NCBI GenBank assembly: GCA_041744795.1
Contig: JBGTKD010000199.1
Location: 1 to 60,509, forward strand
DNA length: 60,509 nt
Source: Acidimicrobiia bacterium
Lineage (GTDB): Bacteria; Actinomycetota; Acidimicrobiia; Spongiisociales; ZC4RG35
Reading direction: 5' to 3'
Below the pieces are notes generated by a model that made no database searches, was not told the origin of the DNA, and worked only from the letters and a program-made list of their open reading frames with translations. The translations under genes and the position numbers were made by a program. Positions 2,969 through 55,052 of this stretch are shown in pieces (position 1 is the first letter of the stretch; every line of letters starts with the position of its first letter).

Positions 2969-4294
2969 TCAGGCCTCGACGCGTTCGAGGTTGAGGCCGA
3001 GAGATTGGAAGGTTTCGAGAGGCTTGTTGTAGCCGCGCTCGAGGTGGTTGACTCCGCCGATGCGGGAGGCGCCCTCGGCGACCGCAGCGGCGATCACGCC
3101 TGAGAATCCTGCCCTGACGTCGGGGATTTCGACATTTGCGCCGCGCAGTTTCGATACGCCCCGCACCACCGCAGAGTGCACCGAGTTGGTGTCGTGGAAG
3201 CGACAGGCCGGTCCCCCGAGACAGGTGTCGAATAGCTCGACCTCTCCGCCCATCGCCCGAACGACGGAAGCCGGATACCGGACTCGATCTTCGAAGACGG
3301 TCTCGTGGAGCACCGACATTCCGTCGGCCTGGGTCATCAGGACCAGCAGAGGTGACTGCCAGTCCGTCATGAACCCTGGATGGGTGTCGGTGTGGACCGC
3401 AACCGGGTTAAGGCCGCTCGACGAGGCTGTGATCCAGTCGTCATTGACGTCCAGCACGGCTCCCATCCGGCTGAGAGTTGTGATTGCTGTCACCAGACGG
3501 TCCTGGCTGCATCCCGCCACCCGCACGTTGCCGCCGGTGATCAGACCCGCCACCAGATACGAGAAGGCCTCCAATCGGTCCCCTTGCAGGCGAGTGTGTG
3601 CACCTCGCAGGGTGGGGACCCCTTCGATTACGAATTGGCGGCCCGGCCGTTGCTCCAGCCGGGCGCCCATCCGTTGTAAGAACAGGGCCAACTCGACGAT
3701 CTCCGGTTCGGTGGCGGCATTGGACAGCACTGTCCGTCCCTCGGCTACGGCCGCCGCCAGTAACACCGTCTCGGTTGCCATGACCGACGGATAGGGCAGT
3801 TCGATCTGAGCGCCCTTCAAACCGTGAGATCGAGCATGGATCCCTTCGTCGCTCTCCTCGATTTCCGCCCCCATCGCGCGTAGGGCGCTGACGTGGAAGT
3901 CCACCGGTCGACGACCGATCCGGTCCCCGCCTGGCAGAGGAACGAAGACTTCGTGGCGGAGATGGAGCAGCGGTCCGAGCATGAGAATGGGAATACGGTT
4001 CAGTCCCGTGTACTCGACCGACACCTCTGAGCCGATCTCGTCTGCAGGATGAATCTCGATGCGGTCGTCGGTCCGTTCAACGCCTACTCCAAGTGACCGC
4101 AGGATTGCTTCAGTGATGTGGACGTCGCCGACGTCGGGGATGTTCTCGATCACCGACGGAGTCGACCCCATCACCGCAGCCACCATGTGCTTTGTGACGG
4201 CGTTCTTTGACCCCGCCACTTTCACCTCACCGCGCAACGGACCGGACGGCTCGACCAGCCAGGCGGGGGAGTGTTCGTCGTTGCTCACGATCAC
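2969..4294 (-). CDS. murA: UDP-N-acetylglucosamine 1-carboxyvinyltransferase
   Basis: 441-aa EPSP-synthase-fold protein with the N-terminal motif GEVKVAGSKNA. The active-site loop reads PLPGGDRIGRRPVDFH, which matches E. coli PGGC(115)xIGARPVDLH except that Asp replaces the Cys. Confidence 0.9.
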   Translation of the reverse strand: MIVSNDEHSPAWLVEPSGPLRGEVKVAGSKNAVTKHMVAAVMGSTPSVIENIPDVGDVHITEAILRSLGVGVERTDDRIEIHPADEIGSEVSVEYTGLNRIPILMLGPLLHLRHEVFVPLPGGDRIGRRPVDFHVSALRAMGAEIEESDEGIHARSHGLKGAQIELPYPSVMATETVLLAAAVAEGRTVLSNAATEPEIVELALFLQRMGARLEQRPGRQFVIEGVPTLRGAHTRLQGDRLEAFSYLVAGLITGGNVRVAGCSQDRLVTAITTLSRMGAVLDVNDDWITASSSGLNPVAVHTDTHPGFMTDWQSPLLVLMTQADGMSVLHETVFEDRVRYPASVVRAMGGEVELFDTCLGGPACRFHDTNSVHSAVVRGVSKLRGANVEIPDVRAGFSGVIAAAVAEGASRIGGVNHLERGYNKPLETFQSLGLNLERVEA

Positions 4295-4334
4295 ATTGTA
4301 TGGACGGCGGCGCCGGTTCCAGCCCTCAGATGGA

Positions 4335-6005
4335 TCAACGATCTGCGATCCAGTCTTCGACTAGTTCGCCCAGGACCGTGAGAGGGACCGACCCGTTGGT
4401 TAACACGACATCGTGGAAGCCTGGGTAGGAGAACCGGTCGGCCATCTCGCGGCGAGCCTTCTCGCGCAACCGGTAGATCTCGCGCTGGCCGATCTTATAG
4501 GCCAGGGCCTGGCCGGGCATTGCGATGTAGCGGTCGACTTCTCCGGCGATCGACTCACCGCTGACCGGGGCGTGGTCTGCGAAGAAGTCGATCGCTTGGG
4601 CCCGAGTCCACCCCAGATTGTGGATCCCGGTGTCGACCACCAAGCGGATCGCCCGCCAGGCATCTGAACTCACCATGCCGAGGCGGTCGATAGGTCCCGA
4701 GTAGAGGCCAATCTCGTCCGCCAGCCGCTCGGCATACAGGCCCCAGCCCTCGGCGTGGGCGATGTTGGCGCTGTAATTCCGGAAGCGGGGGATACCGGTT
4801 AGCTCCGCGGCCAGCGTGCGGTCGAAATGGTGGCCCGGGATGGCTTCGTGATGGGCGATCGCTTCGCCGTCGAAGCGGGTGCGGGTCTCCGGGCGATAGG
4901 TGTTCAGGTAGTAGGTCCCTGGCCGGGACCCGTCGGGCGAGCCGACGCCGTAATAGGCGCCCGGCATCGCTGGGGCCAGGGCATCCGGTACCGGTTCGAC
5001 CACGCATGGACCTTTCGGCATGACCCCAAACCACTCCGGGACAGCTGCCCATGCCCGTTCGATCGTGGATCTGGCGTGTTGGAGCATCTCCTCAGCGGTG
5101 TCATAACGGAGATCGGGGTCGTCTCGCAGTTGGGTGATCACCTCCGCCGGATCGGAAATCCCGAAGGCCTCCTCGCCGATGGTGGCGAACTCGTCTCGCA
5201 ACACCCCTGTTGCTTCTTCCATCCCGATCCTGTGGATCTCGGCGGCGTCCAGGTCGAGGGAAGTGAACACCTCAATCAAGGTCTCATAGCGCTTCTGTCC
5301 ATCGGGTAGATGGAGCAGACCTGGTTGGTCGTCTGAGCGGGCCACCGGTCCGGCGGTCTCGGCCAAGAATTCACGATGTCGGGCGAAGGCAGGGCGCACT
5401 CCCTCCAACACAGCATGGCGCAGGTTCTCACGCCACTCCGCTTCGCCTGCCCAGCCGTGTGGCGTTCCGATCGCCATCATCGGATCGGACTCGATCGGGG
5501 CTCTGACCAGCGCGTCCAGCTGTCCGAGTACGCGTTCGAGGTTCGTTCCGGTGGGGGTGAGCCCGGCGGCCAGGTCGATGCGCTGTCGCTGCTCGACTTT
5601 GGTCAGGTACGCGGGAATCGAACGCACGCGTTCGAGCAACATCTCGGCGTGTTCGGGCTCGGCGGCTGTGTTGCGACTGAGGCCGCTCGGCAACACCGTC
5701 TGAACTCCGAGGAACGGACTTATAGCGGCCTCGTAGAGACCCGAGTCGATCAACCCGACAAGGCCCTTGACAGTCACGATGAGAATGTCACGGGTCAACG
5801 CGTCGGCCCGGTCCAACGGACCGAGGGCCCTCACCCGGTCACCAATGTCCCGCAGTTTGGATGCGACTTCGGCCGACTCTTCGTGGGTTGTCGGCCCGAG
5901 TTGGTCATCGAAACGGTGGTCGCCATAGATGGTGGCGGATATCGGTGAAGACTCCATCCACACATCCCAGTAGAGCTCGGAAAGCGAGGCAATGGTGTCC
6001 GGCAT
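4335..6005 (-). CDS. DUF885-family protein (putative metallopeptidase-like)
   Basis: 556-aa ORF with the DUF885-type motif HHEAIPGHHFD and a consistent coding composition throughout. Confidence 0.8.
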   Translation of the reverse strand: MPDTIASLSELYWDVWMESSPISATIYGDHRFDDQLGPTTHEESAEVASKLRDIGDRVRALGPLDRADALTRDILIVTVKGLVGLIDSGLYEAAISPFLGVQTVLPSGLSRNTAAEPEHAEMLLERVRSIPAYLTKVEQRQRIDLAAGLTPTGTNLERVLGQLDALVRAPIESDPMMAIGTPHGWAGEAEWRENLRHAVLEGVRPAFARHREFLAETAGPVARSDDQPGLLHLPDGQKRYETLIEVFTSLDLDAAEIHRIGMEEATGVLRDEFATIGEEAFGISDPAEVITQLRDDPDLRYDTAEEMLQHARSTIERAWAAVPEWFGVMPKGPCVVEPVPDALAPAMPGAYYGVGSPDGSRPGTYYLNTYRPETRTRFDGEAIAHHEAIPGHHFDRTLAAELTGIPRFRNYSANIAHAEGWGLYAERLADEIGLYSGPIDRLGMVSSDAWRAIRLVVDTGIHNLGWTRAQAIDFFADHAPVSGESIAGEVDRYIAMPGQALAYKIGQREIYRLREKARREMADRFSYPGFHDVVLTNGSVPLTVLGELVEDWIADR

Positions 6006-6196
6006 GTCGACTCCTTGGGGCTAGAGCGATCGTCACCCTAAAGCTGATGCCTCAGCTATTCGAAGCGAGGGGTATCGGCCTGGCGCAGGCCCTACGAGGT
6101 GATGTGAGGCAGCCACCACCATCAAAGACAGTCTGCCTCATTCCAGATCGATCACGCCATCCGTACGTTGGCCGTTCATCGTCGGCAGGAGGACTC

Positions 6197-6682
6197 GTGG
6201 TAACAGGGTTTTGGAACAGGCACGCATGGAAATTTCTGCTGGGTCTGGTTGCCGTCATCGGCTTGTTCGGCATCGGTGATGTCATCTTGGGTCTCGACGC
6301 CGACCCGGGAATTCCTTTGGCAGTCACTGGCATGACCATCGATGAGATCAGAGCGTCGGGTGGCACTTTGACCCACCTGACAGACCTGCTGGTGAGAGCC
6401 GGTGGGGTTCACCTCATGGTTATGAGTGCGGTTTGGGCCGCCCTGATCCTGGTCCCGTTCCGTAGGGGTGAAAAGTGGGCCTGGTACGTGATGTGGACGT
6501 TCCCTCTCTGGGCGGCTTCGGTGGCGGTGACCTTCCTGTTCGTAGATCTACAGCCGGACACTCCGCCTGCACCCCCGGCGATTTCGAGCTGGATTTTCCT
6601 GGCGGCGACTGCTGGCCTGCTGTGGGCCTCGTCGGGTAGCTTCGTTCGCTCGCAGGCGGATGATCACTCCATATCCGGGTGA
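6197..6682 (+). CDS. Hypothetical integral membrane protein (4 predicted TM helices)
   Basis: This is the C-terminal part of track ORF 5861..6682. The 5' part of that ORF overlaps the DUF885 gene and is non-protein-like. GTG at 6197 is preceded by AGGAGG (6187-6192). Hydrophobic helices are WKFLLGLVAVIGLFGIGDVILG, VHLMVMSAVWAALILV, WAWYVMWTFPLWAASVAVTFLFV and ISSWIFLAATAGLLWA. Confidence 0.55.
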   Translation: MVTGFWNRHAWKFLLGLVAVIGLFGIGDVILGLDADPGIPLAVTGMTIDEIRASGGTLTHLTDLLVRAGGVHLMVMSAVWAALILVPFRRGEKWAWYVMWTFPLWAASVAVTFLFVDLQPDTPPAPPAISSWIFLAATAGLLWASSGSFVRSQADDHSISG

Positions 6683-6789
6683 TCACCGACATGTTCGAGA
6701 TCGGTAGGAGCCCCAGCCTGGTCTAAACTGGTGTGGTTCGCGTGATGTGAAGTCGCCGATATCGCCTCGCTAGCGTGGACTCCACACAT

Positions 6790-6863
6790 GCGCCCGTAGC
6801 TCAATTGGATAGAGCGTCTGATTACGGATCAGGAGGTTAGGGGTTCAAGTCCCTTCGGGCGTG
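6790..6863 (+). tRNA. tRNA-Arg (anticodon ACG)
   Basis: Starts GCGCCCG-TA-GCTC-AATTGGATA-GAGC. Anticodon stem TCTGA/TCAGG encloses the loop TTACGGA. T-arm is AGGGG-TTCAAGT-CCCTT. The 3' acceptor strand is CGGGCGT, giving a G1-U72 wobble, and the discriminator is G. Confidence 0.9.
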
Positions 6864-6870
6864 CTGAGCG

Positions 6871-6894
6871 AAACCCCCGTTCCGACGGGGGTTT
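6871..6894 (+). terminator. Perfect 10-bp hairpin after tRNA-Arg (terminator-like)
   Basis: AAACCCCCGT - TCCG - ACGGGGGTTT, starting 8 nt after the tRNA 3' end. The stem ends in TTT. Confidence 0.5.
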
Positions 6895-7155
6895 CGGCGC
6901 GTCTGGTTGTCCAATAACCCAGAGGGTTGGCCGGCCGGCGGGGGGTGACGTTGGGTTTGGGCCTCGGCAGCAGCGTCCGCTCAAGGAACCTTGGCGACGC
7001 GCTGAATGAGGTGTGTCTCCTCATAAGGCACCAGCTGAGGAAGAAGGTCCCAGGTTTCGCGCATTCGCCCGGTCAGGCGACGAAGCCCCTTGACACGTCA
7101 GGCTTCAGGGTGTGTGCACGATGCCGATGTAGACACATGATCTTTCACGAGTCGC

Positions 7156-9099
7156 TTGAACTTCATGCGAGCGAGGCGGCGATTTTGGATGGCAACTACG
7201 ACGTCTGTCTCGTCCACTACCGCTCGGGTAAGCACCGCAACGGTGACCGACGAGCGCGGGGCTGTCGTTGGGGTGGTGGGAGTCTCGATGGAGGTCACCG
7301 CCACCAGGCAGGCCGAAGCTGAGATGAAAAGCCGTCAGCAGCTGATCGCGGCCGCGTTCGAGTCTTCGCCGATCGGTACATCCATCGCGTCCCCTGATCT
7401 GACGATCGTGTCGGCCAATCCTGCTTACGCGGCCTTTCTCGGTTATCCAGTGGGCGACCTGATCGGCAGGAACGTCCGGGAGTTCACGCATCCTGAAGAC
7501 CTCGACGCCACCAAAGACGCCCTCAGTGGATTGGTCGGCGGTGGAGCGACCAGCAACGTAATCGACAAGCGATACATACGTTCTGACGGCCAGATCGTGT
7601 GGGGTCGTCTCCATGTCAGCTGGATCTATGACGAGGACGGCCGGGTCACCCATGCGCTAGGACAAGTCGTCGACATCACCGAGGTCAAGCATTCCGAAGA
7701 CCAGATCCGCTTCCAGGCTTCGGTGCTTGACCAGGTTCATCACGCGGTGTCGGCAACCGACATGACCGGAGCCATCACATACTGGAACAAGAGAGCCGAG
7801 ACTTTGTTCGGTTGGACTGAATCCGAAGTAATCGGCCGCAGCCTCAAGGGAATCGTGCTCACCGAGACAGCATCAGAGTTCCTGGCAACCCTCTACGCCG
7901 CGCTGGCCGAACATGGGATGTGGGAGGGCGAAGTGACGCTCGCGCGAAAGGATGGCTCAACCTTCCCCGCCTGGGCGAGCGACACCGTCATCCGTGACGC
8001 CCAAGGCAAGCCGGTCGGTTTCGTGGCTGTGAACATCGACATGACCGACATCAAAACGGCGGAACAGCTCGCCCGAAATCAAGCGGACCTCAACCGGACC
8101 CTGCTCGAGTCGGTCAGCGTGCCCATCGCCATCATCGATAAAGACGGGGATCTGATCGTCACGAATCCCTCGTGGGAGCGGATCACTCATGCCAAGCCGA
8201 GCCGCGCTGGATACCTTCCGGCATGCCTCGCCGAGCACGCCTCACCAGGGGAGTTGATGGATGGCATCGCAGGCGTGATCGACGGCACGACCGATCGGTT
8301 TGTCATCGAGTACCCCTGTTATGAAGCAGGTGACGAAAGCTGGTTTCGGACCGTTGTGGTTGGGGCTGAGAGCGGGGCGGTGATCTCGCACTGGGACATC
8401 ACCGACGAACGGATCGCCAGAGCGACGCTCGAAGACAGGATCCGGGCAAATGACGCCTTCATAGCATCGGTCTCCCACGAGCTGCGGACTCCGCTCACTG
8501 CAGTGCTGGGCCTCTCAGAGATGCTCCGGTCGGGAACCGTCCCGATTGAGGATGCTGGAGAAATGATCTCTCTGATCGCAGACCAGGCCCAAGAGGTCTC
8601 GTTGATCGTTGAGGACCTGCTGGTCTCAGGCCGCCTTGAAAGCAACACTCTGACTGTACATCCCAGCACTTTCGACGTGGCAGATGAGACGATCAAAGTG
8701 ATCCAGCCGGGGATCCACACAGGAAACACTGACATCGAGGTGGCGTTCACGACGGGGGCGGTGTTCGCGTTCGCCGATCCGCTCAGGGTCCGCCAGATTC
8801 TTCGCAACCTCATCACCAACGCGCATCGACATGGCCGCCCGCCGGTCACGATCACCGGGTCCATGAGCGGAGGCCGATGTGTCGTGAAGGTCACGGATCG
8901 CGGACATGGCATCCCGAGAGATGCCGAGGTGAGATTGTTCGACCCATACGCCCGATTTGGGCCGACTGGCGGCCAACCCCTATCGGTTGGTCTGGGACTC
9001 CATGTAGCGCGTCGCCTGGCACGTTTGATGGATGGCGAGCTCACCTACCAGAGACAAGACCTCGAAACCATCTTCGAGCTGACCCTCCCAGGACCGTAA
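7156..9099 (+). CDS. Multi-PAS sensor histidine kinase (cytoplasmic, N-terminally truncated first PAS)
   Basis: 647-aa ORF with three complete PAS modules, HisKA (FIASVSHELRTPLTAVLG) and HATPase_c (NLITNAHRHG ... DRGHGIP ... GLGLHVA). Possible starts are TTG 7156, ATG 7165 or ATG 7186. It is a paralogue of the kinase at 23973..26495. Confidence 0.85.
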   Translation: MNFMRARRRFWMATTTSVSSTTARVSTATVTDERGAVVGVVGVSMEVTATRQAEAEMKSRQQLIAAAFESSPIGTSIASPDLTIVSANPAYAAFLGYPVGDLIGRNVREFTHPEDLDATKDALSGLVGGGATSNVIDKRYIRSDGQIVWGRLHVSWIYDEDGRVTHALGQVVDITEVKHSEDQIRFQASVLDQVHHAVSATDMTGAITYWNKRAETLFGWTESEVIGRSLKGIVLTETASEFLATLYAALAEHGMWEGEVTLARKDGSTFPAWASDTVIRDAQGKPVGFVAVNIDMTDIKTAEQLARNQADLNRTLLESVSVPIAIIDKDGDLIVTNPSWERITHAKPSRAGYLPACLAEHASPGELMDGIAGVIDGTTDRFVIEYPCYEAGDESWFRTVVVGAESGAVISHWDITDERIARATLEDRIRANDAFIASVSHELRTPLTAVLGLSEMLRSGTVPIEDAGEMISLIADQAQEVSLIVEDLLVSGRLESNTLTVHPSTFDVADETIKVIQPGIHTGNTDIEVAFTTGAVFAFADPLRVRQILRNLITNAHRHGRPPVTITGSMSGGRCVVKVTDRGHGIPRDAEVRLFDPYARFGPTGGQPLSVGLGLHVARRLARLMDGELTYQRQDLETIFELTLPGP

Positions 9100-9158
9100 G
9101 CCGTCACCAATCTCCACGATTGACACATGCCGAACCTGACGCGGTCGATGACTATCGC

Positions 9159-9653
9159 TCAGAACATCAGATTGTGCCGCTCGACCAGGGGCATCGTGGC
9201 CTCAAAGTCGACGGCACACCCATAGCTGGCTGCCATCTCCGCCAGGGTCTCCGGTTCGGGGAAGTCAGTGAGTGAGTCAAGAGCCCGGAAGAGGTCGTCC
9301 AATCCTGCGGGCGAGATCAACTCGAGTATTCGGGCTGTGGTGTCGCCAGCATTCCAGAAGGTGTGCCACTCCCCGCGTGGCTTGAACAGAAGATCTCCGG
9401 GCCTGGCAACGGCCTCGTGACCGCCGAGAATCGCGCCTACCTCGCCTTCGATTATGAAAGAGAACTCGTCTTCTCGACTGTGGTGGTGCATTGGAGCGGC
9501 GAGGGCTCGGGGAGGAAGGACGTGCTCGACCACGGCGAACCGCCCCTCAGTGTCCCCGGCGGACACAAGGAACCGATCCTGAGGCCCGCCCGGGGACCCC
9601 ATCAGCTCTCCTTCCGAAGCCCTTATCAATCGGGGTTGGCGTGACGTGGTCAT
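9159..9653 (-). CDS. Cupin-domain protein
   Basis: Cupin motifs PMHHHSREDEFSFIIEGEV and PRGEWHTFWN. I set the start at ATG 9653, preceded by AAGGAGA. This ATG overlaps the upstream stop as ATGA. Confidence 0.75.
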   Translation of the reverse strand: MTTSRQPRLIRASEGELMGSPGGPQDRFLVSAGDTEGRFAVVEHVLPPRALAAPMHHHSREDEFSFIIEGEVGAILGGHEAVARPGDLLFKPRGEWHTFWNAGDTTARILELISPAGLDDLFRALDSLTDFPEPETLAEMAASYGCAVDFEATMPLVERHNLMF

Positions 9654-9985
9654 ATTTCTCCTTGGTGAGTGGGTGGCCATTTCAAGACGGAGATCGCGAT
9701 TCGCCATGATCCGTCCGGCCCGCGGCGAGAGAGGTTGACACCCTGTCCGACGCTGATCGCCAGGTCGTTGGTGGCCAGGATCCGTGTTGAAGCCGGACGA
9801 ACCGCCTCTTGATTCGGCGAGAATGTCCGGGCCGTGAAGGCAGCAGGCGATTCGGGATGCTCCTGATCGCTTACGAGGATCCCGTTGGGCTCGAAAAGCG
9901 AGATGACTCGCTCAGCATCTGAGAGGATGAAGGCATCCTCGAGGAGGGCCTCCAGCTCTTCCGGTGTGCGTGCTCCGTCACTCAA
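9650..9985 (-). CDS. Small NTF2/SnoaL-like fold protein (hypothetical)
   Basis: This is the C-terminal 111 aa of track ORF 9650..10216. TTG at 9985 is preceded by GGAGGA (9997-9992) with 6-nt spacing. The longer version would run across the divergent LuxR start. The fold assignment rests only on size and pattern (TPEELEALLEDAFILSD...WRIAISVL). Confidence 0.5.
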   Translation of the reverse strand: MSDGARTPEELEALLEDAFILSDAERVISLFEPNGILVSDQEHPESPAAFTARTFSPNQEAVRPASTRILATNDLAISVGQGVNLSRRGPDGSWRIAISVLKWPPTHQGEI

Positions 9986-10090
9986 CAAACTTCCTCCGCC
10001 CCGACGACTATCGGATCTCCAAAGTAGATCTCGGGGTGGGGGCGCGTCGATACCAGCTTTCTGGCAGTTTCCTGGGGCTGAGCGCTCCTT

Positions 10091-11236
10091 ATGATCTTCT
10101 TCGTGCAGAGTCGAGAGCGTGTCATCACTCGTGTCCGCGAGCTGAGCAACAGAGGCCTCGACCTCGTTGGGTTCTGGAGCGAATGCACCGAAGTGATCAC
10201 ACCCGTGATGCCCCACTATCTCGGACCTTGTTGGTTCACGGTCGACCCGGCGTCACTGATGATCACCAGTCACTATCAGGAGGGGTTACCCGAGATTCCA
10301 TCCGAATGGCTGGCCGAGGAGTACTACGGCGATGATTTCAACAAGATGGTGGATGTCGCCCGATCCGAAAGCGGGGTGGGCACTCTTCTCGAGGCGACGG
10401 GCGGTGACCCCACACTTAGTGCCCGCTATCACGAGCAGATGGTGCCGTTCGGCTGCGACCAAGAGATGCTCGTAGGGCTCCGCACCACAAGAGACGAGAT
10501 TTGGGGCTGTCTTGGCTTGTACAGGGAAATGGGTCAGCCCCAGTTCGGGCCCGATGACTTTTCCTTCGTCCGAGAGCTCTCACCTCATCTGGCAGAAGGC
10601 GCCCGGCGCGCTCTCCTGTTCGCCGAGGCCACCGACCCGGATGACCCAGAACCTCCCGGGCTGGTGGTCATCGATGACAATTGGGAGGTCGAGTCGGTGA
10701 CGCCTGCCGCCGCCAGGTGGCTTGCCGACTTCCCTGACGGGGATTGGGGCAGGGGAATCCTCCCGTCGGCCGTCAGTTCGGTAGCGGGGCAAGCTCGTCG
10801 GACCGCCGAGCGCGATGATCCCGGCCAGGTCGCCTACGCACGTGTGCTCTCTCGGAGTGGTCGCTGGATCGTCTTGCACGGAGCCTCTTTGGTGTCGGGC
10901 GATCGCCCGCGGGTCGCCGTGATCATTGAGCTGGCCCATCCGGCGCGGATAGCTCCGCTTCTGATGGCGGCGTACGGGCTCAGCGAGCGGGAACAGGATG
11001 TGACCAGACTTGTCTTGCAGGGTTGTTCGACCACCGAAATCGCCGATCGGCTCTATATCTCGGTCAACACGGTCCAACAGCACCTAAAAAGCATCTTCGA
11101 AAAGACTTCGGTCAGGAGTAGGCGCGATCTGGTGGGCAAGGTCTTCTTTGCCCATTACGAACCTCGGGTCCGTGACAACGAAGGACGGGCTGTAGCCGGG
11201 GATCCGCTGCGGGGTGGCCCTTCACCCATGGCTTAG
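10091..11236 (+). CDS. LuxR-family transcriptional regulator with N-terminal GAF-like sensor domain
   Basis: C-terminal LuxR HTH (LSEREQDVTRLVLQGCSTTEIADRLYISVNTVQQHLKSIFEKTSVRSRRDLV). No receiver domain is present. It is divergent from the NTF2-like/cupin pair. Confidence 0.85.
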   Translation: MIFFVQSRERVITRVRELSNRGLDLVGFWSECTEVITPVMPHYLGPCWFTVDPASLMITSHYQEGLPEIPSEWLAEEYYGDDFNKMVDVARSESGVGTLLEATGGDPTLSARYHEQMVPFGCDQEMLVGLRTTRDEIWGCLGLYREMGQPQFGPDDFSFVRELSPHLAEGARRALLFAEATDPDDPEPPGLVVIDDNWEVESVTPAAARWLADFPDGDWGRGILPSAVSSVAGQARRTAERDDPGQVAYARVLSRSGRWIVLHGASLVSGDRPRVAVIIELAHPARIAPLLMAAYGLSEREQDVTRLVLQGCSTTEIADRLYISVNTVQQHLKSIFEKTSVRSRRDLVGKVFFAHYEPRVRDNEGRAVAGDPLRGGPSPMA

Positions 11237-11838
11237 TAACTACCCCGGCGTCGACGACGGCTGAGTACTGAGCGCTGATCAAGGGGGATTGCGAGATTGC
11301 CCCCGGTAACCAAGAACAGCTGAGCGGTGACAAAGGCATCAGCCAGGGCGTGGTGGGCGGTCCCGGGCGGAACTCCGAACCGATCCGCGGCCATCGAGAG
11401 AGTCTCGGAGCTGTTCCATGCCCGTCCCATCCGCGAGTCGGTTTCTCGCACTAGATCGCGGACGTCGATCGTTCGTCGCTGCCAGGACCGCAGTCGCCCT
11501 CCGTAGGCCGCGGCCAGGAACGAGGTCTCCACCCACGCCGACCAGACCACCAGTGGGTGGTTGTCGAGAATTGCCTCCAGCTCGGCGAGCGTCTGTGAAC
11601 GGGGAGCGGCTTGAGCCAGATCGATAGGACGCAGATGGTGGATGCGTACCACCTCGGTTGGGATCGGCATGTTCGATTGCATCACCCTGTAGGTGCTCTG
11701 GTCCAGCCGCACCCTCCCATCGACAATGGGGATCGCCCCAAACGAGAGGATCACGTCGTGGCGTGGATCGAGACCGGTCGTCTCAAGATCCAGAGCGATG
11801 GGATAGCTCGACCGTTCCCTTCGTCGGGTTCGGCTCAT
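11233..11838 (-). CDS. DEDDh 3'-5' exonuclease (DnaQ/epsilon-like domain)
   Basis: Exo I motif IALDLETTGL and Exo III motif HHALADAFVTAQL. It overlaps the upstream gene by 4 nt. Confidence 0.8.
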   Translation of the reverse strand: MSRTRRRERSSYPIALDLETTGLDPRHDVILSFGAIPIVDGRVRLDQSTYRVMQSNMPIPTEVVRIHHLRPIDLAQAAPRSQTLAELEAILDNHPLVVWSAWVETSFLAAAYGGRLRSWQRRTIDVRDLVRETDSRMGRAWNSSETLSMAADRFGVPPGTAHHALADAFVTAQLFLVTGGNLAIPLDQRSVLSRRRRRGSY

Positions 11839-13652
11839 CGGCCGAGGATCCGCGGGGCGAGTTGGTTGCTCAGATCTGTCTGGATGTCACGCACGATGCG
11901 AAACGCCTGCTTCAAGGCTGCGCGGTCGATCGGGCCTAGGCCCTCGGGGTCGATCAAGTTGCTGGGCCGCTCACCGGCGGTCCATTGCCCCACCTGGTTT
12001 CGCAGCCGGAGGTCCTGTAGGAACCCGAAAGCCTCTTCCAGACCATCGGCGTGGTCGGGCGAGAGGGTGCCAGCACCGGCCGCCGCCTGCAGGCGAGCGG
12101 GTGTATCCAACTCGAAAGCACCCGCCCGCAGCGAGTAGATGCGAGCCAACTCGGTGATCGGCAAGAGCCCACCCAGCTTGAGGTCCAACACTCCCGCTTG
12201 CCCGTTTGCGTCGTGGGCGAGGAGGCCGCCGAGTATTCCCAACGGGGGCCGGACCTCTAGTGCCAGGCGCTCCAACCTGCGGAGAAAGTCGGGTTGGCGG
12301 CTGGCGGCGTCGGCTGCTTCTGTGAACAACGCTCCGACGGTGAGGTCTCCTGACACAGCCCGGACGTCGAACGCGATACCGGTCAGGAATGCCGCCACCC
12401 TGTCCGGTTCGGTCATCCAGTCCGCCATCCGTCGTCGCCACCACGTCTCCGTCCCCCGCCAGCCATCCTCACTGGCCATCACCTTCGACGAGCATCTCGG
12501 TATCCCCGCCGCTTCGAGTCCGGCTACCACCAACCTGGCCAGTTCCAAGAAATAGTCGTCGTGCTCCTCTTCGGCGTCGGAGAAGATCAGCGCATGGTCC
12601 TGGTCCGTTAACAGCGCCTGCTCCCGCCGGCCAGCTGAGCCGAGGGCAAGCCACGCGAAGTCCACAGGCGCAGTGCCTAGCGTTTCCTGTCCGAGTTCGA
12701 GCAATCGCGTAGTTAGCGCATCGATCAACACCGAGACGACCTTGGACACGTGGCCAGCGTCGACGCCGCCCTGTACGAGGGTGGCGATCGCGTTAGGTAC
12801 TTCCTTTGCAGCCTCCGCCAATCGTTCGACCGAGTTCGCCTGTTGGATCTCCGAGCGCAACCGGGAGGAGTTGCGCCGTTCCAGGTCGAGAAGGTCAAGG
12901 TCCCTGAGCATGGCGACCACCGCGCCGCTGCCGTCCACTACCGGCAGGTGGTGAACACCCGACTCGAGCATCTTGAGGAGAGCCTCTGAGACGAGCGACG
13001 AGCGGGAGATGGTGAGCGCGGCCCTAGTCGTAACTAGTTCGATCGTCGCCTGGGTACTGGCTCCGGCTGCAACCACTCGGGACCGAAAGTCGCGGTCCGT
13101 CACGATGCCTGGCCCGTCCGGCAGTTCGATCACAGCGGCTGACGCGGCCGCTGCATTCATCCGCTTGGCCACAGTTTCGATCGTCTCGTGGGGCTGAGCG
13201 AAGACGAGCGGCCCCCGAGCGATGTGCTCGACATAGGGCTGGGCTGAGTTCGGGTGCTGAGGCGCTCGGCGCGACCGCAGGGTCCGGACGAGAAACTGAA
13301 TGCCGGTCGGCGCTCCCAGGATGTCGATTGCCACTGTGCGATCGAACAGGTAGCACAGGGCGTCCTCGGCCACGCGCACCGTGTGTTGCGGCGAAGAGCC
13401 CGCAAGCAGGGAGGGGAAGCCGAACGCCTCCCCCTTCTCGAGGCGGTCAATAACGCTGTCACCATCGACCAACTCGACCTCTCCGCGTCTTAGGACAAAC
13501 AAGAAGTCGGATGGTTTGCCTCCCTGCTCGAGCACAACGGAGCCGGTCGGAAAGAAGTCGACGATCACCGACGCCGCCACCTCGGCCAGCACATCGTCGG
13601 GAAGGCCCCGGAACGGGGCGTGCGCACTTAGAAAGCGCTCGACCTCCAGCAT
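11835..13652 (-). CDS. cNMP-binding / tandem CBS / DUF294 nucleotidyltransferase protein
   Basis: 605 aa. N-terminal cyclic-nucleotide-binding fold (FLFVLRRGEVELV...GEAFGF), a CBS pair (…IVTDRDFRSRV…HHLPVVDGSG…), a GlnD-like NTase core (LALGSAGRREQALLTDQDHALIF) and a DUF294_C-like tail. Confidence 0.85.
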   Translation of the reverse strand: MLEVERFLSAHAPFRGLPDDVLAEVAASVIVDFFPTGSVVLEQGGKPSDFLFVLRRGEVELVDGDSVIDRLEKGEAFGFPSLLAGSSPQHTVRVAEDALCYLFDRTVAIDILGAPTGIQFLVRTLRSRRAPQHPNSAQPYVEHIARGPLVFAQPHETIETVAKRMNAAAASAAVIELPDGPGIVTDRDFRSRVVAAGASTQATIELVTTRAALTISRSSLVSEALLKMLESGVHHLPVVDGSGAVVAMLRDLDLLDLERRNSSRLRSEIQQANSVERLAEAAKEVPNAIATLVQGGVDAGHVSKVVSVLIDALTTRLLELGQETLGTAPVDFAWLALGSAGRREQALLTDQDHALIFSDAEEEHDDYFLELARLVVAGLEAAGIPRCSSKVMASEDGWRGTETWWRRRMADWMTEPDRVAAFLTGIAFDVRAVSGDLTVGALFTEAADAASRQPDFLRRLERLALEVRPPLGILGGLLAHDANGQAGVLDLKLGGLLPITELARIYSLRAGAFELDTPARLQAAAGAGTLSPDHADGLEEAFGFLQDLRLRNQVGQWTAGERPSNLIDPEGLGPIDRAALKQAFRIVRDIQTDLSNQLAPRILGR

Positions 13653-13682
13653 GATCGTCAGCCTATCGGTCCCAATCGACGG

Positions 13683-14399
13683 TCAAGGGGCGGTCGGCTG
13701 ACCAGTCAGGAACGACTGGATCCAGGCAGCGAGCAGAGCCCGATCGGGCGCATCGCCCAGGGTTGCCAGGCCCGCGTCGACTACTTCGGCCGCTATCACG
13801 TTCCCGCGGCGACGCTCCATCTGCGTTCGGGCGAAGGCGGGCACGAACTCAGGGTGGCCCTGGATGCCGATCACGTGGTCGCCGTAGGCCAACATCGAAA
13901 CCGGACAGTGCTCGGTGGTGGCCAGTACCCGGATTCCGGGAGGCGGCTCGACGATTTGGTCGGCGTGACTGTGCACCACTCGAAAGCGCGTCACCTTGGG
14001 GTCCATCCAAGGCTCGGAATCCAAGACAGCTACCTCACGGATGCCGATTCCCCACCCTTGGGCGGCTCGTGCCACTTTCCCGCCCAGCGCTTGGCCGATC
14101 ATCTGGTGGCCGAAGCAGATACCCACGAGCTTTCGCCTCTCGTCGATCAATTCTCGCACGAGGCTCTCCAGCCGACGGATCCATGGCTCGTCGTCGTACA
14201 CAGAACGGGTCGAACCGGTGATGATCCAGCCGTCGCACTCTTGGCCGGATACAGGGAACTGGTCCGCGGTCAGATCGTAGGGAACGAGCTCCACCTGGGG
14301 ATAGGCGGCCAGGAGGTCGTCGAACATGTCCAGATAATCGCCCGCAAGGGGGGCCAACTCTGGGGGGACGTGGTCGCAGATCAGCAGCCCAATACGCAT
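13683..14399 (-). CDS. Class-I glutamine amidotransferase-like hydrolase (PuuD-like gamma-glutamyl amide hydrolase candidate)
   Basis: MRIGLLICDH..., nucleophile elbow GICFGHQ and C-terminal HPEF. ATG 14399 lies 1 nt after the ALDH stop. The track ORF start at 14474 would overlap the ALDH gene. Confidence 0.8.
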   Translation of the reverse strand: MRIGLLICDHVPPELAPLAGDYLDMFDDLLAAYPQVELVPYDLTADQFPVSGQECDGWIITGSTRSVYDDEPWIRRLESLVRELIDERRKLVGICFGHQMIGQALGGKVARAAQGWGIGIREVAVLDSEPWMDPKVTRFRVVHSHADQIVEPPPGIRVLATTEHCPVSMLAYGDHVIGIQGHPEFVPAFARTQMERRRGNVIAAEVVDAGLATLGDAPDRALLAAWIQSFLTGQPTAP

Positions 14400-50896: not shown

Positions 50897-51223
50897 ATGA
50901 ACCGTCCACCCAACATGCAGCAGCTCATGAAGCAGGCCCAGCAGATGCAAGAGCAGATGATGGCCGCCCAGGCAGAGCTCAACGAGATGACCTTCGAGGG
51001 CACAGCCGGCGGTGGGGTCGTGAAAGCGACGGTGCGGGGATCGAATGAACTCGTCGCCATTGAAATCGCGACGGAGGTCATAGATCCCACCGATCCTGAG
51101 ATGCTCGAGGATCTCGTCGTGGCTGCGGTCAACAGCGCTATGCGTTCTGCCGCAGAGGCCGTCGAATCCCAGATGGGTGATCTGACGGGGGGACTTGGCG
51201 GGCTGGGCGGCCTGCTCGGCTGA
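50897..51223 (+). CDS. ybaB: YbaB/EbfC-family nucleoid-associated protein
   Basis: ATG 50897, preceded by GAGGA. NMQQLMKQAQQMQEQMMAAQAEL...GGGVVKATV.G... is the YbaB signature. This is the canonical dnaX-ybaB-recR order. Confidence 0.85.
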   Translation: MNRPPNMQQLMKQAQQMQEQMMAAQAELNEMTFEGTAGGGVVKATVRGSNELVAIEIATEVIDPTDPEMLEDLVVAAVNSAMRSAAEAVESQMGDLTGGLGGLGGLLG

Positions 51224-51816
51224 TGTACGAAGGCCCACTTCAACGACTGGTGGACGAGCTGTCCCGACTCCCAGGCATTGGCGGGAAGTCGGCCCAGCGC
51301 ATCGCGTTCCACCTGCTCAGCATCCATGAGGTCGACGCTCGCCGTCTGGGACAGGCCGTCCTCGACATGCGAGACCAAGTCGGCCACTGCCTCCGGTGCT
51401 TCAACGTCACAGTTTCTGAAGAGTGCACGATCTGTCGCGATCCACGGCGCGACACCTCGACCGTTTGTGTCGTGGAGCGCCCCCAAGACATCATCGTGGT
51501 TGAAAAGACCCAGGAGTACCGGGGGATTTATCACGTGCTCGGAGGCTCGCTCTCTCCGATCAACGGCATCGGACCTGACCAGTTGCGTATCCCTGAACTA
51601 CGACAGCGAATATCGACAGAGACCGTCAACGAACTCATCATCGCCACGAACCCGACCATGGAAGGTGACGCAACCGCAATGTACCTCGCCAAGGAGTTCA
51701 AGCCGCGCGGCATCAAGGTCAGCCGACTCGCCAGTGGCCTCCCAGTCGGCGGCGACCTCGATTACGCAGACGAGTTGACTCTCGGTCGTGCTCTTGTCGG
51801 CCGCATGGAGATGTAG
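51223..51816 (+). CDS. recR: Recombination protein RecR
   Basis: HhH (LPGIGGKSAQRIAFHL), a Cys4 zinc finger (CLRCFNVTVSEECTIC) and a Toprim domain. The ATG overlaps the ybaB stop (TGATG). Confidence 0.95.
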   Translation: MYEGPLQRLVDELSRLPGIGGKSAQRIAFHLLSIHEVDARRLGQAVLDMRDQVGHCLRCFNVTVSEECTICRDPRRDTSTVCVVERPQDIIVVEKTQEYRGIYHVLGGSLSPINGIGPDQLRIPELRQRISTETVNELIIATNPTMEGDATAMYLAKEFKPRGIKVSRLASGLPVGGDLDYADELTLGRALVGRMEM

Positions 51817-51824
51817 CTCACTCA

Positions 51825-52898
51825 ATGCGGGTATTGCTGATCGAGCCGTATATGGGGGGCTCTCACCGCGCCTGGGCCGATGGTTACGCACAGGCTTCGG
51901 CCCACGAAGTCACCCTCGTGACTCTGGAGGCGCGTTGGTGGACTTGGCGGATGAGGGGCTCAGCGGTGATTCTCGCCGAGAAGGTGGCCGAGTTGGCTGG
52001 CAACGGATACCGGCCCGACGTGGTCCTTGTCTCCGACATGGTCGACGTCGCTGCCCTGCGCACGTTTCTCCACTCGTCGATCGGCCGTCCGCCACTCGCC
52101 CTCTACTTCCACGAGTCCCAGTTCACCTATCCGGACAGTCCACAGATGTCGGCCGACCTGTCTTATCCGTTCTTGAACTGGACCTCGGCCGTTGCCGCCG
52201 ATGCCGTGTTCTTCAACAGTTCCTATCACCGGGACGTCTTTTTCGAGGAACTGCCACGCCTGTTGAAGGGCTTCCCCGACTACACCCACACCCACCTCAT
52301 CGACTCGGTCGCCGACCGGACCGCCGTCCTCCCGGTGGGTGTGGACCTGTCCTGGATAACTAGAGACGGCTTCCGAACTAGTCCGCCCATCGTGTTGTGG
52401 AATCACAGGTGGGAATATGACAAGGACCCTGAGACCTTTGCCGACGCCGTTAGGGCGGTGGCTGCCACACACGACTTTCGTCTGGCTCTCGCCGGCGAGC
52501 GTTTCCGGACGGTGCCGGGAGTGCTCGACGAGTTGGCTGACGAACTCGCCGGGCGCATCGAAGCAAACGATCACCTTTCAACCGAGGCCTACCGATCACT
52601 GCTGCTCCGGTCCGATGTCGTCGTCAGTACCGCTCTCCAGGAGTTCTTCGGAGTAAGCGTGGTCGAAGCGATCGCGGCGGGTGCCCGCCCCGTACTTCCC
52701 GATCGGCTCTCTTATCCATGTTTGATACCGGAAGAGCATCATGCAGCGGTGTTGTACGGACCGGGCGGATTCACCGCCGCCCTGCGCACCGCAGTTGAAG
52801 ATCCGGCGCCGGTTGACGGCCTGGCAGAGGCGATGGCCATGTTCGACTGGTCGGTTGTTGCCCCGCGCTACGACGCCGCGCTGGAGTCAATGCTGTGA
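51825..52898 (+). CDS. DUF3524-type GT4 glycosyltransferase (GTDC1/QTMAN homologue)
   Basis: LLIEPYMGGSHRAW, YFHESQFTYP, VFFNSSYHRDVF, IVLWNHRWEYDKDPETF and VVSTALQEFFGVSVVEAIAAGARPVLPDRLSYP. Motif by motif these match my recollection of vertebrate GTDC1. Confidence 0.85.
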   Translation: MRVLLIEPYMGGSHRAWADGYAQASAHEVTLVTLEARWWTWRMRGSAVILAEKVAELAGNGYRPDVVLVSDMVDVAALRTFLHSSIGRPPLALYFHESQFTYPDSPQMSADLSYPFLNWTSAVAADAVFFNSSYHRDVFFEELPRLLKGFPDYTHTHLIDSVADRTAVLPVGVDLSWITRDGFRTSPPIVLWNHRWEYDKDPETFADAVRAVAATHDFRLALAGERFRTVPGVLDELADELAGRIEANDHLSTEAYRSLLLRSDVVVSTALQEFFGVSVVEAIAAGARPVLPDRLSYPCLIPEEHHAAVLYGPGGFTAALRTAVEDPAPVDGLAEAMAMFDWSVVAPRYDAALESML

Positions 52899-53545
52899 TC
52901 CGCCACGTCGTCTGGGATTGGAACGGCACGCTCTTTGACGACCTTCATTTGGTCGTGGAGGCGGTCAATGCCGGCATCGCGCCGCTCGGAATCGGTTCGA
53001 TCACACTTGAGGACTATCGGACCCACTACACCCGCCCGGTCAAGGTCTTTTACGAGCGGCTTGCCGGTGGTGAGATCAGCCACCGGGAATGGCTCGATCT
53101 TGACCGCCGCTTTCACGATGCCTATCGAGATCTGCTTCCCACCGCGGGACTATCCGCCGACGCCGTGGAGGCGCTTACGGCGGTCGCCGAGGTCCCAGCG
53201 GGACAGTCCTTACTCTCGATGTACCCCCATCATGATCTTGTCCCGCTGGTGGAACGCTTGGGAGTTAGTTCCTACTTCCAGCGCATCGACGGGTTGAGAG
53301 GTGAGCGGGGCGCCCGCAAGGCTGGCTTTCTGGAAGCCCATTTGCGCGAGTTGATGGCTGACGAAGATCCCTCGACGGTGCTGCTCATCGGCGACGCCAC
53401 AGATGACGCTGTTGCCGCTGCCCACGTAGGAGCACCTGCGGTGTTGGTTGACAATGGATCCCATCACCGAGACGAGCTGGAGTCGATGGGCTTCCCCGTG
53501 GCTTCCAATCTGCTTGAGGCCCTCCGTATCAAAGGCTTGGTCTGA
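52895..53545 (+). CDS. HAD-IA-type hydrolase (phosphatase-like)
   Basis: GTG 52895 overlaps the glycosyltransferase stop as GTGA. Motif I reads VWDWNGTLFDD, so Asn sits at the D+2 position. LLIGDATDD is a motif-IV-like element. Confidence 0.8.
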   Translation: MIRHVVWDWNGTLFDDLHLVVEAVNAGIAPLGIGSITLEDYRTHYTRPVKVFYERLAGGEISHREWLDLDRRFHDAYRDLLPTAGLSADAVEALTAVAEVPAGQSLLSMYPHHDLVPLVERLGVSSYFQRIDGLRGERGARKAGFLEAHLRELMADEDPSTVLLIGDATDDAVAAAHVGAPAVLVDNGSHHRDELESMGFPVASNLLEALRIKGLV

Positions 53546-53591
53546 GCGAGCGCCGTTTGACCATCCGGTGTGGTGTGGCACTATCGCCATC

Positions 53592-54059
53592 GTGAACTAC
53601 TGGCTGATCAAGTCCGAGCCGGATGCCTATTCGATCGATGATCTGGAGAACGACGGCGTTGAACACTGGGACGGAATTCGCAACTACCAGGCACGAAACA
53701 TCATGCGCGATGACATGTCGGTCGGCGACCGGGTGCTCTTCCACCATTCCAATGCCAAACCGCCAGGCATAGTTGGCATGGCCGAGGTGGCGAGCGAGCC
53801 ATATCCAGACCACACACAGTTCGACCCCGACTCGAAGTATTTCGACGAAACCTCCGATCCCGAAGACCCGCGCTGGATCATGGTGGATATGCGGTTCGTC
53901 GAGAAGTTCCCGCGAATGGTCGGGATGCCAGAACTCAAAGAACACAAGGCCCTGGCCGACATGGTTCTCTTGAATCGAAGCCGTCTGTCGGTGCAGCCGG
54001 TCACGAAGAAGCAGTTCGACTACATCGTCGAGCTGGCGAAGCAACCGCCGCCCGAGTGA
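53592..54059 (+). CDS. EVE (PUA-like, THYN1-type) domain protein
   Basis: GTG 53592 gives NYWLIKSEPDAYSIDDLENDGVEHWDGIRNYQARNIMRDDMSVGDRVLFHHSN.... This is the typical EVE-domain N-terminus. Confidence 0.8.
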   Translation: MNYWLIKSEPDAYSIDDLENDGVEHWDGIRNYQARNIMRDDMSVGDRVLFHHSNAKPPGIVGMAEVASEPYPDHTQFDPDSKYFDETSDPEDPRWIMVDMRFVEKFPRMVGMPELKEHKALADMVLLNRSRLSVQPVTKKQFDYIVELAKQPPPE

Positions 54060-54065
54060 CGGGCC

Positions 54066-55052
54066 TCACCCATACTCGACGCTGGAGAGGCTTCCCAGAG
54101 TCGTGAGGTTGTGGAAGGCGTCCATGTAACGGACCGATCCCGTCTTCGATCGCATCATCACCGAGTGGGTGACCGCACCGTTCCCGTGGAACTGAACACC
54201 GTGGAGAAACTCACCCCCGGTGATTCCGGTCGCGGCGAACGAGACGTTGGTGCCGCCCACTAGGTCGGTAGTCCCCATCACCCTGGCGAGGTCGAATCCG
54301 TTCTCTGACGCGTACGCCCGGTCGGCGTCGTCCCGAGCCCACAGGCGGCACTGGATCTCACCCCCCATGCAGCGGAGGGCAGCTGCCGCGAGCACCGCTT
54401 CCGGTGATCCGCCGATGCCCAACAGCATGTCGATTCCGGTTCCTTCCTTTCCGGTAGCGATGGCTCCTGACACGTCGCCGTCGCGTATCAGCCTGATACG
54501 AGCGCCAGCCGCTCGCACCTGCTCGATGTATGGGTGGTTTCTCGGTCGGTCCAGGATGATGACCGTCAGGTCGTTGACGTCGCTGTCCTTGGCTCTTGCC
54601 ACGCTGTGGAGGTTGTGGGCCACCGGTGCGTCGAGGTCGATTGCGCCGTGGGCTTCGGGACCAACGGCGATCTTTTCCATGTACACCATGGATGCGGGTG
54701 AGAACATGCTGCCGCGTTCGGCGACTGCGAGTACGGCCAGCGCTCCTGGCACGCCTGATGCGACGAGGGTCGTCCCCTCGACTGGGTCGACGGCGATGTC
54801 GACCTCCTGACCTGCTCCGTTCCCGACTCTCTCACCGTTGTGCAGCATGGGCGCCTCGTCTTTCTCGCCCTCACCTATGACAACGACACCATCGAGGTCG
54901 AGTGTCCCCAGGTGGGCGCGCATGCCATCCACCGCTGCCTTGTCGGCCGCCTCCTTGTCGCCCCTTCCTTGCCACCGAGCGGCCGCCATCGCCGCTGTCT
55001 CGGTGACCCGGGCGAGGTCGAGACCCAGATTGCGATCAGGAATTTCTGCCAT
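54066..55052 (-). CDS. glpX: Class II fructose-1,6-bisphosphatase
   Basis: 328-aa GlpX-like protein (…DIAVDPVEGTTL…, …GIGGSPEAVLAAAALRC…). The ATG shares 1 nt with the thiolase stop. Confidence 0.9.
   Translation of the reverse strand: MAEIPDRNLGLDLARVTETAAMAAARWQGRGDKEAADKAAVDGMRAHLGTLDLDGVVVIGEGEKDEAPMLHNGERVGNGAGQEVDIAVDPVEGTTLVASGVPGALAVLAVAERGSMFSPASMVYMEKIAVGPEAHGAIDLDAPVAHNLHSVARAKDSDVNDLTVIILDRPRNHPYIEQVRAAGARIRLIRDGDVSGAIATGKEGTGIDMLLGIGGSPEAVLAAAALRCMGGEIQCRLWARDDADRAYASENGFDLARVMGTTDLVGGTNVSFAATGITGGEFLHGVQFHGNGAVTHSVMMRSKTGSVRYMDAFHNLTTLGSLSSVEYG

Follow-up and report, generated by a model that had tools for sequence, protein, structure and literature searches.

We analysed a 60,509-nt contig from an Acidimicrobiia bacterium (JBGTKD010000199.1, hereafter the window; all positions are on its forward numbering), and in it a short run of genes headed by a glycosyltransferase (GT) of the QTMAN/GTDC1 family. 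The run follows the genes for DnaX, YbaB and RecR, as identified with Pfam, and comprises the GT, a HAD hydrolase and a protein with an EVE domain, beyond which lies glpX:

51223–51816, forward strand: recR (Pfam RecR_HhH, RecR_ZnF, Toprim_4 and RecR_C), which closes the dnaX-ybaB-recR housekeeping operon.
51825–52898, forward strand: GT of the QTMAN/GTDC1 family, 357 aa (Pfam PF12038 and PF00534).
52895–53545, forward strand: HAD-IA (phosphoglycolate-phosphatase-like) hydrolase, 216 aa (Pfam PF13242, PF00702 and PF13419).
53592–54059, forward strand: EVE (PUA-like) single-domain protein, 155 aa (Pfam PF01878, E-value 7.5e-58).
54066–55052, reverse strand: glpX, class II fructose-1,6-bisphosphatase (PF03320, 6.6e-136), convergent with the EVE gene.

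The GT, HAD and EVE open reading frames (ORFs) lie where the original prediction had placed them, and their packing is as it described. The ATG of the GT gene (51825) comes 8 nt past recR, which ends in TAG at 51814–51816; the GT stop (TGA, 52896–52898) and the HAD start (GTG, 52895) overlap as GTGA; and the likely EVE start, GTG at 53592 (MNYWLIKSEP), follows the HAD stop (53543–53545) by 46 nt. The mechanically called EVE ORF extends back to a TTG at 53448, and we consider GTG 53592 the most plausible start because four orthologues (72–86% identity) align from an M-x-YWLIKSEP beginning. The EVE and glpX stops converge 6 nt apart, and a simple terminator scan gave no match in this gap. A promoter and terminator scan of the region from 48.8 to 55.2 kb returned nothing convincing and is thus uninformative on operon limits, and Rfam and tRNA scans found only tRNA-Ser(GCT) and tRNA-Arg(ACG), both far upstream. 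Placed at the end of dnaX-ybaB-recR, the GT gene is probably transcribed together with that operon.

The original prediction had proposed, from motifs of vertebrate GTDC1, that the 357-aa protein is a bacterial homologue of the animal enzyme, and profile and BLASTP evidence from both domains establishes it as a true end-to-end homologue. All four quoted bacterial motif strings are present in the GT translation, and the four vertebrate motifs set against them are exact in the macaque QTMAN database sequence. Vertebrate sequences were fetched with a synthetic probe in which these four vertebrate motifs were joined by runs of X; from its output we used only real database sequences, named tRNA-queuosine alpha-mannosyltransferase or GTDC1 in NCBI and UniRef. 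The QTMAN_N domain (PF12038, formerly DUF3524) matched GT residues 2–173 over model positions 1–168 of 168 (E-value 2.7e-55, 187 bits against a cut-off of 25). The C-terminal GT4 domain was recognized by PF00534 (34.4 bits, cut-off 26.4) and PF13692 (33.4 bits, cut-off 27); it carries R195 and K200 and, as read from alignments, an E-x7-E donor motif, E273-FFGVSVV-E281. BLASTP against macaque QTMAN (P0286) gave two colinear matches, GT residues 1–169 at 30% identity (1e-21) and residues 190–355 at 32% identity (2e-23).

Residues were compared in an alignment of 180 bacterial members and 12 vertebrate proteins. Forty-two columns are at least 90% conserved in bacteria, and 31 of these are identical and at least 90% conserved in vertebrates. 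In about seven further columns the vertebrate majority residue is the bacterial one (these stand at 83% in vertebrates because two short isoforms are gapped), bringing the overall agreement to about 38 of 42. Common to bacteria and vertebrates in the N-terminal domain is a signature of G12-S13-H14, W39/W41/R42, Y94/H96/E97/Q99/Y102/P103 and F130/N131/S132, and on the donor side R195, W196, D199, K200 and E281. The window GT matches the bacterial consensus at 41 of these 42 positions and departs from it at residue 249 (codon 52569–52571), in the motif R-I-x-H-x-G-Y, which is Gly in 92% of bacterial members and in all vertebrate QTMANs and is Asp here. Asp, Ala, Gly and Glu are all seen at this position throughout the Acidimicrobiia clade of the window, so the change looks like lineage-specific relaxation and not decay. 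Family membership is solid at the level of both sequence and fold, and the GT is a bona fide and apparently functional bacterial member of the QTMAN family.

The family is large. An exhaustive HMMER search returned 2839 clusters (at 50% identity) at E ≤ 0.001 and 892 at E ≤ 1e-30, and in a collection with one genome per species at least 588 stretches encode a relative of the GT; the best 80 of these come from Acidimicrobiia, Chloroflexota, Bacteroidota, Acidobacteriota, Thermodesulfobacteriota, KSB1 and Brocadiaceae. No relatives were found in a scan of viral contigs with the patterns used. The nearest named proteins are annotated 'DUF3524 domain-containing protein [Acidimicrobiia bacterium]', and the bacterial family is thus already named by databases, with the window GT as one more member. 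Compared with the bacterial part of Pfam QTMAN_N it is a typical one: it is 70–87% identical to proteins named DUF3524 from Acidimicrobiia metagenome-assembled genomes (MAGs) and 36–50% identical to members in Chloroflexota, Bacteroidota, Acidobacteriota and Thermodesulfobacteriota, and it differs from other members only in its lineage-specific neighbours and the relaxed Gly249 position. A literature search found no paper containing 'DUF3524'. In an unrooted FastTree phylogeny with 10 vertebrate QTMANs, the vertebrate proteins formed one long-stemmed clade inside the bacterial diversity, and the window GT, at rank 96 of 180 by tree distance to the animal clade, was not especially close to them. 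This tree alone, built with vertebrates as its only eukaryotes, is silent on the direction of any transfer.

An AlphaFold2 model of the GT, built from a 58-sequence alignment, had a GT-B fold with two Rossmann domains (predicted local distance difference test score 94.4, predicted template-modelling score 0.91). Foldseek returned 325 PDB matches at E ≤ 0.001, of which the best 50 were all GT-B glycosyltransferases. The closest solved folds are the retaining GT4 enzymes GlgM (maltose-1-phosphate synthase), tetrahydrobiopterin glucosyltransferase, SenB, PimA, MshA and BshA, with template-modelling scores of 0.65–0.76 and identities of 13–21%; a GT-B fold with such neighbours fits an alpha-linked product. 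The GT shares with PimA, MshA, BshA, GlgM and UDP-glucose:tetrahydrobiopterin glucosyltransferase its fold, a similar size and an EX7E-type donor motif, whereas sequence likeness to them is confined to the C-terminal domain and its acceptor domain is QTMAN_N. PDB searches by single sequence and by a profile of 58 sequences retrieved no QTMAN structure, only generic GT4 C-terminal domains. NCBIfam models gave a sub-threshold likeness to exopolysaccharide GT4 enzymes (30 bits against a cut-off of 400) through the C-terminal donor domain only, and the Pfam GT4-conflict score was under its cut-off. No transmembrane stretch was predicted in the GT (maximum Kyte-Doolittle average over 19 residues, 1.55). 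The protein is acidic, with an isoelectric point of 4.9 and a net charge of −20; since the whole locus is acidic (DnaX, −37) and Escherichia coli QueA carries −17, this charge is not evidence against RNA binding.

As originally described, the neighbouring HAD protein has an unusual motif I. It reads VVWDWNGTL, with Asn at D+2, and is invariant in 30 homologues of 45–100% identity. The nucleophile Asp8 is kept, the general acid/base position is Asn10, and Ser105/Ser108, Lys142 and Asp167/Asp170/Asp171 are likewise invariant in these homologues. No curated family was reached at its cut-off, no solved structure is a close match, and NCBIfam phosphoglycolate phosphatase (PGP) matches were weak and far below theirs. 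The nearest PDB relatives are AlnB (4ex6) and PGP-like proteins (2yy6 and 2nyv), for which two alignments show D-x-D at this site. The protein resembles these HAD-IA hydrolases in its C1-cap HAD fold, nucleophile Asp, motif II Ser, motif III Lys and motif IV Asp-Asp, and departs from them in the Asn of its invariant WDWNGT. For a sugar-phosphate phosphatase it is atypical to have Asn where the general acid/base Asp is expected, and Asn10 suggests non-standard chemistry or a substrate with a good leaving group. At least 2032 homologues were found, every named one from Acidimicrobiia or Actinomycetota, in addition to 427 metagenome matches; from the named matches the DWNGT subfamily looks Acidimicrobiia-wide, and it could have an unusual chemistry of its own, unrelated to what we propose for the GT.

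At about 11 metagenomic loci (for example L144, 4001–8176, and also L129, L143, L151, L155 and L168) the DWNGT HAD gene is convergent with an opposite-strand cluster encoding a generic GT4 enzyme (367 aa), a 288-aa ORF, a PTPS/QueD-family protein and a Zn-dependent dehydrogenase-like protein. This cluster could belong to a pterin- or deazapurine-related glycoside pathway, and its link to the HAD gene may be mere adjacency. We considered the generic GT4 enzyme as a pterin glycosyltransferase and rejected it: its best PDB matches were sucrose-phosphate synthase and MshA, and tetrahydrobiopterin glucosyltransferase appeared only mid-list. The EVE protein matched PF01878 over model positions 1–145 of 145 and had no match in NCBIfam or PADLOC.

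The original prediction had further linked the GT, HAD and EVE genes as a nucleic-acid glycosylation module, a link that it appropriately labelled as inference only. We found that the trio is confined to a sub-clade of Acidimicrobiia and that its genes occur separately elsewhere; adjacency was not kept across lineages beyond close relatives. The tight order recR-GT-HAD-EVE-glpX is present in three loci whose GTs are 71–78% identical to that of the window (L001, L010 and L093). At about 54–58% GT identity the order of the trio is kept with one gene inserted between HAD and EVE (L007 and L100): in L007 this is a reverse-strand gene of 320 aa, DUF559/REase-like (9730–10692), and L100 has a similar gap. 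In L173 and L174 (2594–7542) the order is recR, GT, the TRAP transporter genes dctP, dctM and dctQ (the last two reverse), HAD, a reverse-strand cyclophilin gene, EVE and glpX, and GT, HAD and EVE there are separate transcription units. The opposite-strand insertions in L007 and in L173/L174 break any common transcript.

Elsewhere in the class the three genes part company. In seven loci recR-GT leads into glpX or other genes and neither HAD nor EVE lies within 10 kb; six have recR-HAD without the GT, some of them in the form recR-HAD-glpX; and in one (L004) the GT stands by itself beside prfC. Among 59 informative HAD loci the upstream gene was the GT in 11, recR in 9 and another gene in 39, so that about 80% were without a directly adjacent upstream GT. 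Outside Actinomycetota, a HAD or EVE homologue was detected near the GT in 0 of about 65 loci, and unbiased clustering of neighbours recovered no family in more than 13 of 82 GT loci. Within Acidimicrobiia the neighbour that the GT keeps most consistently is recR, which lies directly 5′ of it in L001, L007, L010, L011, L012, L016, L043, L053 and L088. The glpX gene, syntenic in eight loci, bounds a variable recR-glpX interval on its far side. Because glpX and the genes for thiolase, glyoxalase, MurJ and PHP are syntenic too, the shared order reflects common descent. GT, HAD and EVE enter and leave this interval independently; HAD and EVE are separate residents of it and not obligate partners of the GT, and genes seem to be gained and lost in the interval unusually often.

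In all lineages sampled, the GT lies among information-processing housekeeping genes. Its neighbours in Acidimicrobiia are dnaX-ybaB-recR and prfC; elsewhere they include genes for a cold-shock-domain protein and a phosphoribosyltransferase-domain protein and assorted unrelated genes. In Aggregatilineales/Phototrophicaceae (Chloroflexota) the GT is found between relA/spoT, upstream, and a convergent gyrA, a run present in eight loci (around 4000–13800) and extended in L017 to ftsY, a SpoU-type RNA methylase, a peptide chain release factor, relA/spoT, GT and reverse-strand gyrA. In two Chloroflexota MAGs (L069, 66–5137; L078, 6554–11731), dnaX-ybaB-recR and the GT converge, separated by one DUF3048 gene; this places the family near recR for a second, independent time, outside Acidimicrobiia. 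An alpha/beta-hydrolase gene follows the GT on the same strand after 33–128 nt in Saprospiraceae and in an unclassified marine MAG (L060, L080 and L086); its product, of about 257 aa, is Ndr/Abhydrolase_1-like (Pfam checked for L080), and this may be a loose recurrent association. No envelope or polysaccharide gene cluster surrounds the GT in any of about 80 loci. Together with the lack of a predicted membrane segment, this speaks against the label 'cell wall biosynthesis' assigned by the Joint Genome Institute (JGI), and the context fits a cytoplasmic nucleic-acid or metabolite substrate.

Sugar-modified queuosines have been placed in vertebrate tRNA, and for bacteria it is glutamyl-queuosine that is discussed (PMC10690763). 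According to the passages that cite Zhao et al. 2023 (in PMC11755703 and bioRxiv 10.64898/2026.06.28.735034), the target of QTMAN in mammals is tRNA-Asp. The view in the original prediction that glycosylated queuosine is a vertebrate feature is out of date: in the mosquito Aedes aegypti, mannosyl-queuosine has been mapped to tRNA-Tyr, and nearly all Diptera have QTMAN orthologues (PMC11705514). Our literature search found no report of glycosyl-queuosine in bacteria.

Whether Acidimicrobiia have queuosine (Q) can be judged from the COG-based gene tables of PMC10570037 (Data S4), which include two genomes of the class. Both of these, Acidimicrobium ferrooxidans DSM 10331 and Ilumatobacter coccineus YM16-304, contain queF, tgt, queA and queG/H; most other Actinobacteria are listed as 'No-Q' or with tgt only, and tgt, queA and queG/H are recorded for the Coriobacteriia and Rubrobacter genomes in the tables as well. 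Acidimicrobiia as a class are therefore predicted to make queuosine in their tRNA. This gene set renders a Q substrate plausible at class level and is not evidence for the MAG studied here.

Q genes were sought in the window and in 170 fetched loci by tblastn with E. coli Tgt, QueA, QueC, QueD, QueE and QueF. Pathway genes were seen near the GT in L082, L069 and L070. In L082 (10001–12300), from a Chitinophagaceae MAG, tgt (PF01702, 5e-132) is convergent with the GT, about 120–230 nt after it. In L069, from a Chloroflexi MAG, tgt lies 9.5 kb from the GT. In L070 (8671–11104), from a Bacteroidia MAG, folE and a PTPS/QueD-family gene are divergent from the GT, about 220 nt upstream, and the latter gene scores below the QueD cut-off.

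We favour, at a probability of roughly 45%, a reading in which the GT is a retaining enzyme that transfers a hexose onto queuosine, probably within tRNA. Acceptors of GT-B enzymes are generally bound by the N-terminal domain, and queuosine is the most likely acceptor here because this domain shares its signature residues with the animal enzyme. The enzyme would be a soluble, cytoplasmic, retaining GT-B protein of the GT4 type. Its C-terminal Rossmann domain would bind a nucleotide sugar through the E273-x7-E281 motif and R195/K200 (in animals the donor is GDP-mannose), and its QTMAN_N domain would form the acceptor pocket. The hexose would most likely be placed on queuosine's cyclopentenediol group, the probable site being Q34 in at least one tRNA with a GUN anticodon, and the product would be alpha-hexosyl-queuosine. 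With animal QTMAN the protein shares the two-domain architecture of PF12038 and GT4 and the motifs GGSH, WxWR, YxHExQxxYP, FNS, WxHRWExDKxP and [E/D]FFGxxxxEA. It differs in being about 100 residues shorter, with the interdomain insert missing, in having Asn at position 193 where vertebrates have Pro, and at S25, G172 and D350. The systems would differ too, in that the bacterium is predicted to make or salvage its own Q precursors and animals import queuine.

Several points weigh against a queuosine acceptor. The insert that the bacterial proteins lack spans about 120 residues of vertebrate QTMAN (macaque ~164–285), and should this segment serve in tRNA binding, bacteria might use a different acceptor. 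Small soluble molecules are the acceptors of the closest solved folds. No tgt or que gene was found within the 60.5-kb window, and only 3 of about 80 loci had Q-pathway genes close to the GT, which on a rough estimate is about what chance would give with some nine pathway genes per genome. Finally, a word search of one QTMAN paper turned up nothing on bacterial homologues.

The main alternative is that the GT glycosylates a free metabolite and not tRNA: queuine, queuosine or a preQ precursor in free form, a pterin with a diol side chain (of the biopterin or neopterin type), or a phosphorylated precursor then dephosphorylated by the HAD protein, as in two-step pathways of the sucrose-phosphate or glucosylglycerate type. 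The best Foldseek matches are indeed soluble GT4 enzymes with small acceptors (GlgM, tetrahydrobiopterin glucosyltransferase, SenB, MshA and BshA), the vertebrate insert is missing, and folE with PTPS/QueD beside the GT in L070 fits pterin as well as queuosine chemistry. In the window the GT stop overlaps the HAD start, and in Saprospiraceae an alpha/beta-hydrolase gene sits just 3′ of the GT. However, the acceptor-domain signature is that of an animal enzyme acting on tRNA, and a part for the HAD protein is hard to reconcile with its position away from the GT in most Acidimicrobiia and in the other phyla sampled, with the roughly four-fifths of HAD loci that lack an adjacent GT, and with its Asn for the general acid/base Asp. 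The window neighbourhood also holds no pterin or osmolyte genes. We regard a small-molecule acceptor as unlikely, though it deserves serious consideration. A glycosylation module, in which the GT would write, the HAD protein process and the EVE protein read a glycosylated base in tRNA or DNA, accounts for the tight packing in the window (8-nt gap, GTGA overlap, 46-nt gap), for an order kept down to about 54% GT identity that outlasts the insertions in L173/L174, and for the description of EVE domains as readers of modified bases (PMC7641849). Yet all the flanking genes are syntenic as well, the three genes are found independently (as recR-GT-glpX, recR-HAD-glpX, recR-HAD and GT beside prfC), opposite-strand insertions split them, and no homologue of this HAD or EVE protein was detected near any of the approximately 65 GTs from outside Actinomycetota. 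A census paper on EVE domains uses neither 'glycosyltransferase' nor 'queuosine', and none of the three proteins has a PADLOC match. Such a module is very improbable, being largely contradicted by the gene contexts.

The genes around the GT could also point to DNA, with a modified base as its target, for example a hydroxymethylated one or a derivative of 7-deazaguanine. Here the relevant neighbours are recR directly 5′ of the GT in about a dozen Acidimicrobiia loci, dnaX-ybaB-recR within 1.3 kb (convergent) in L069 and L078, gyrA convergent with the GT in about 11 Chloroflexota loci, and the EVE reader close by in the window. The same loci are, however, equally rich in translation genes (prfA, prfC, relA and spoU), the window has no DpdA/Tgt-like gene, the viral contig scan revealed no relative of the GT and there was no defence-system match; moreover, the characterized QTMAN members all act on tRNA (PMC11755703). 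We therefore hold a DNA target to be very improbable. Equally hard to sustain is an ordinary envelope GT with a lipid or polysaccharide acceptor, as the source annotation from JGI would have it ('glycosyltransferase involved in cell wall biosynthesis'). The sub-threshold NCBIfam likeness to exopolysaccharide GT4 enzymes and the presence of PimA among the fold neighbours agree with that label, but the likeness is limited to the generic C-terminal donor domain that these enzymes have in common, the N-terminal domain is specific to QTMAN, and neither an envelope or polysaccharide cluster at the roughly 80 loci nor a membrane segment in the protein came to light.

For the locus itself the result is mostly corrective: the apparent module of writer, phosphatase and reader is an effect of local gene order and, as such, should not guide experiments. 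For the family, it is conceivable, though we lean slightly against it, that bacteria of many phyla hexosylate Q34 of their own tRNAs, that glycosyl-queuosine is an old bacterial modification, and that animal QTMAN descended from the bacterial family or shares ancestry with it. A large family whose acceptor signature matches that of the animal enzyme makes bacterial queuosine glycosylation directly testable, and if this account is true, glycosyl-queuosine would not be an animal invention.

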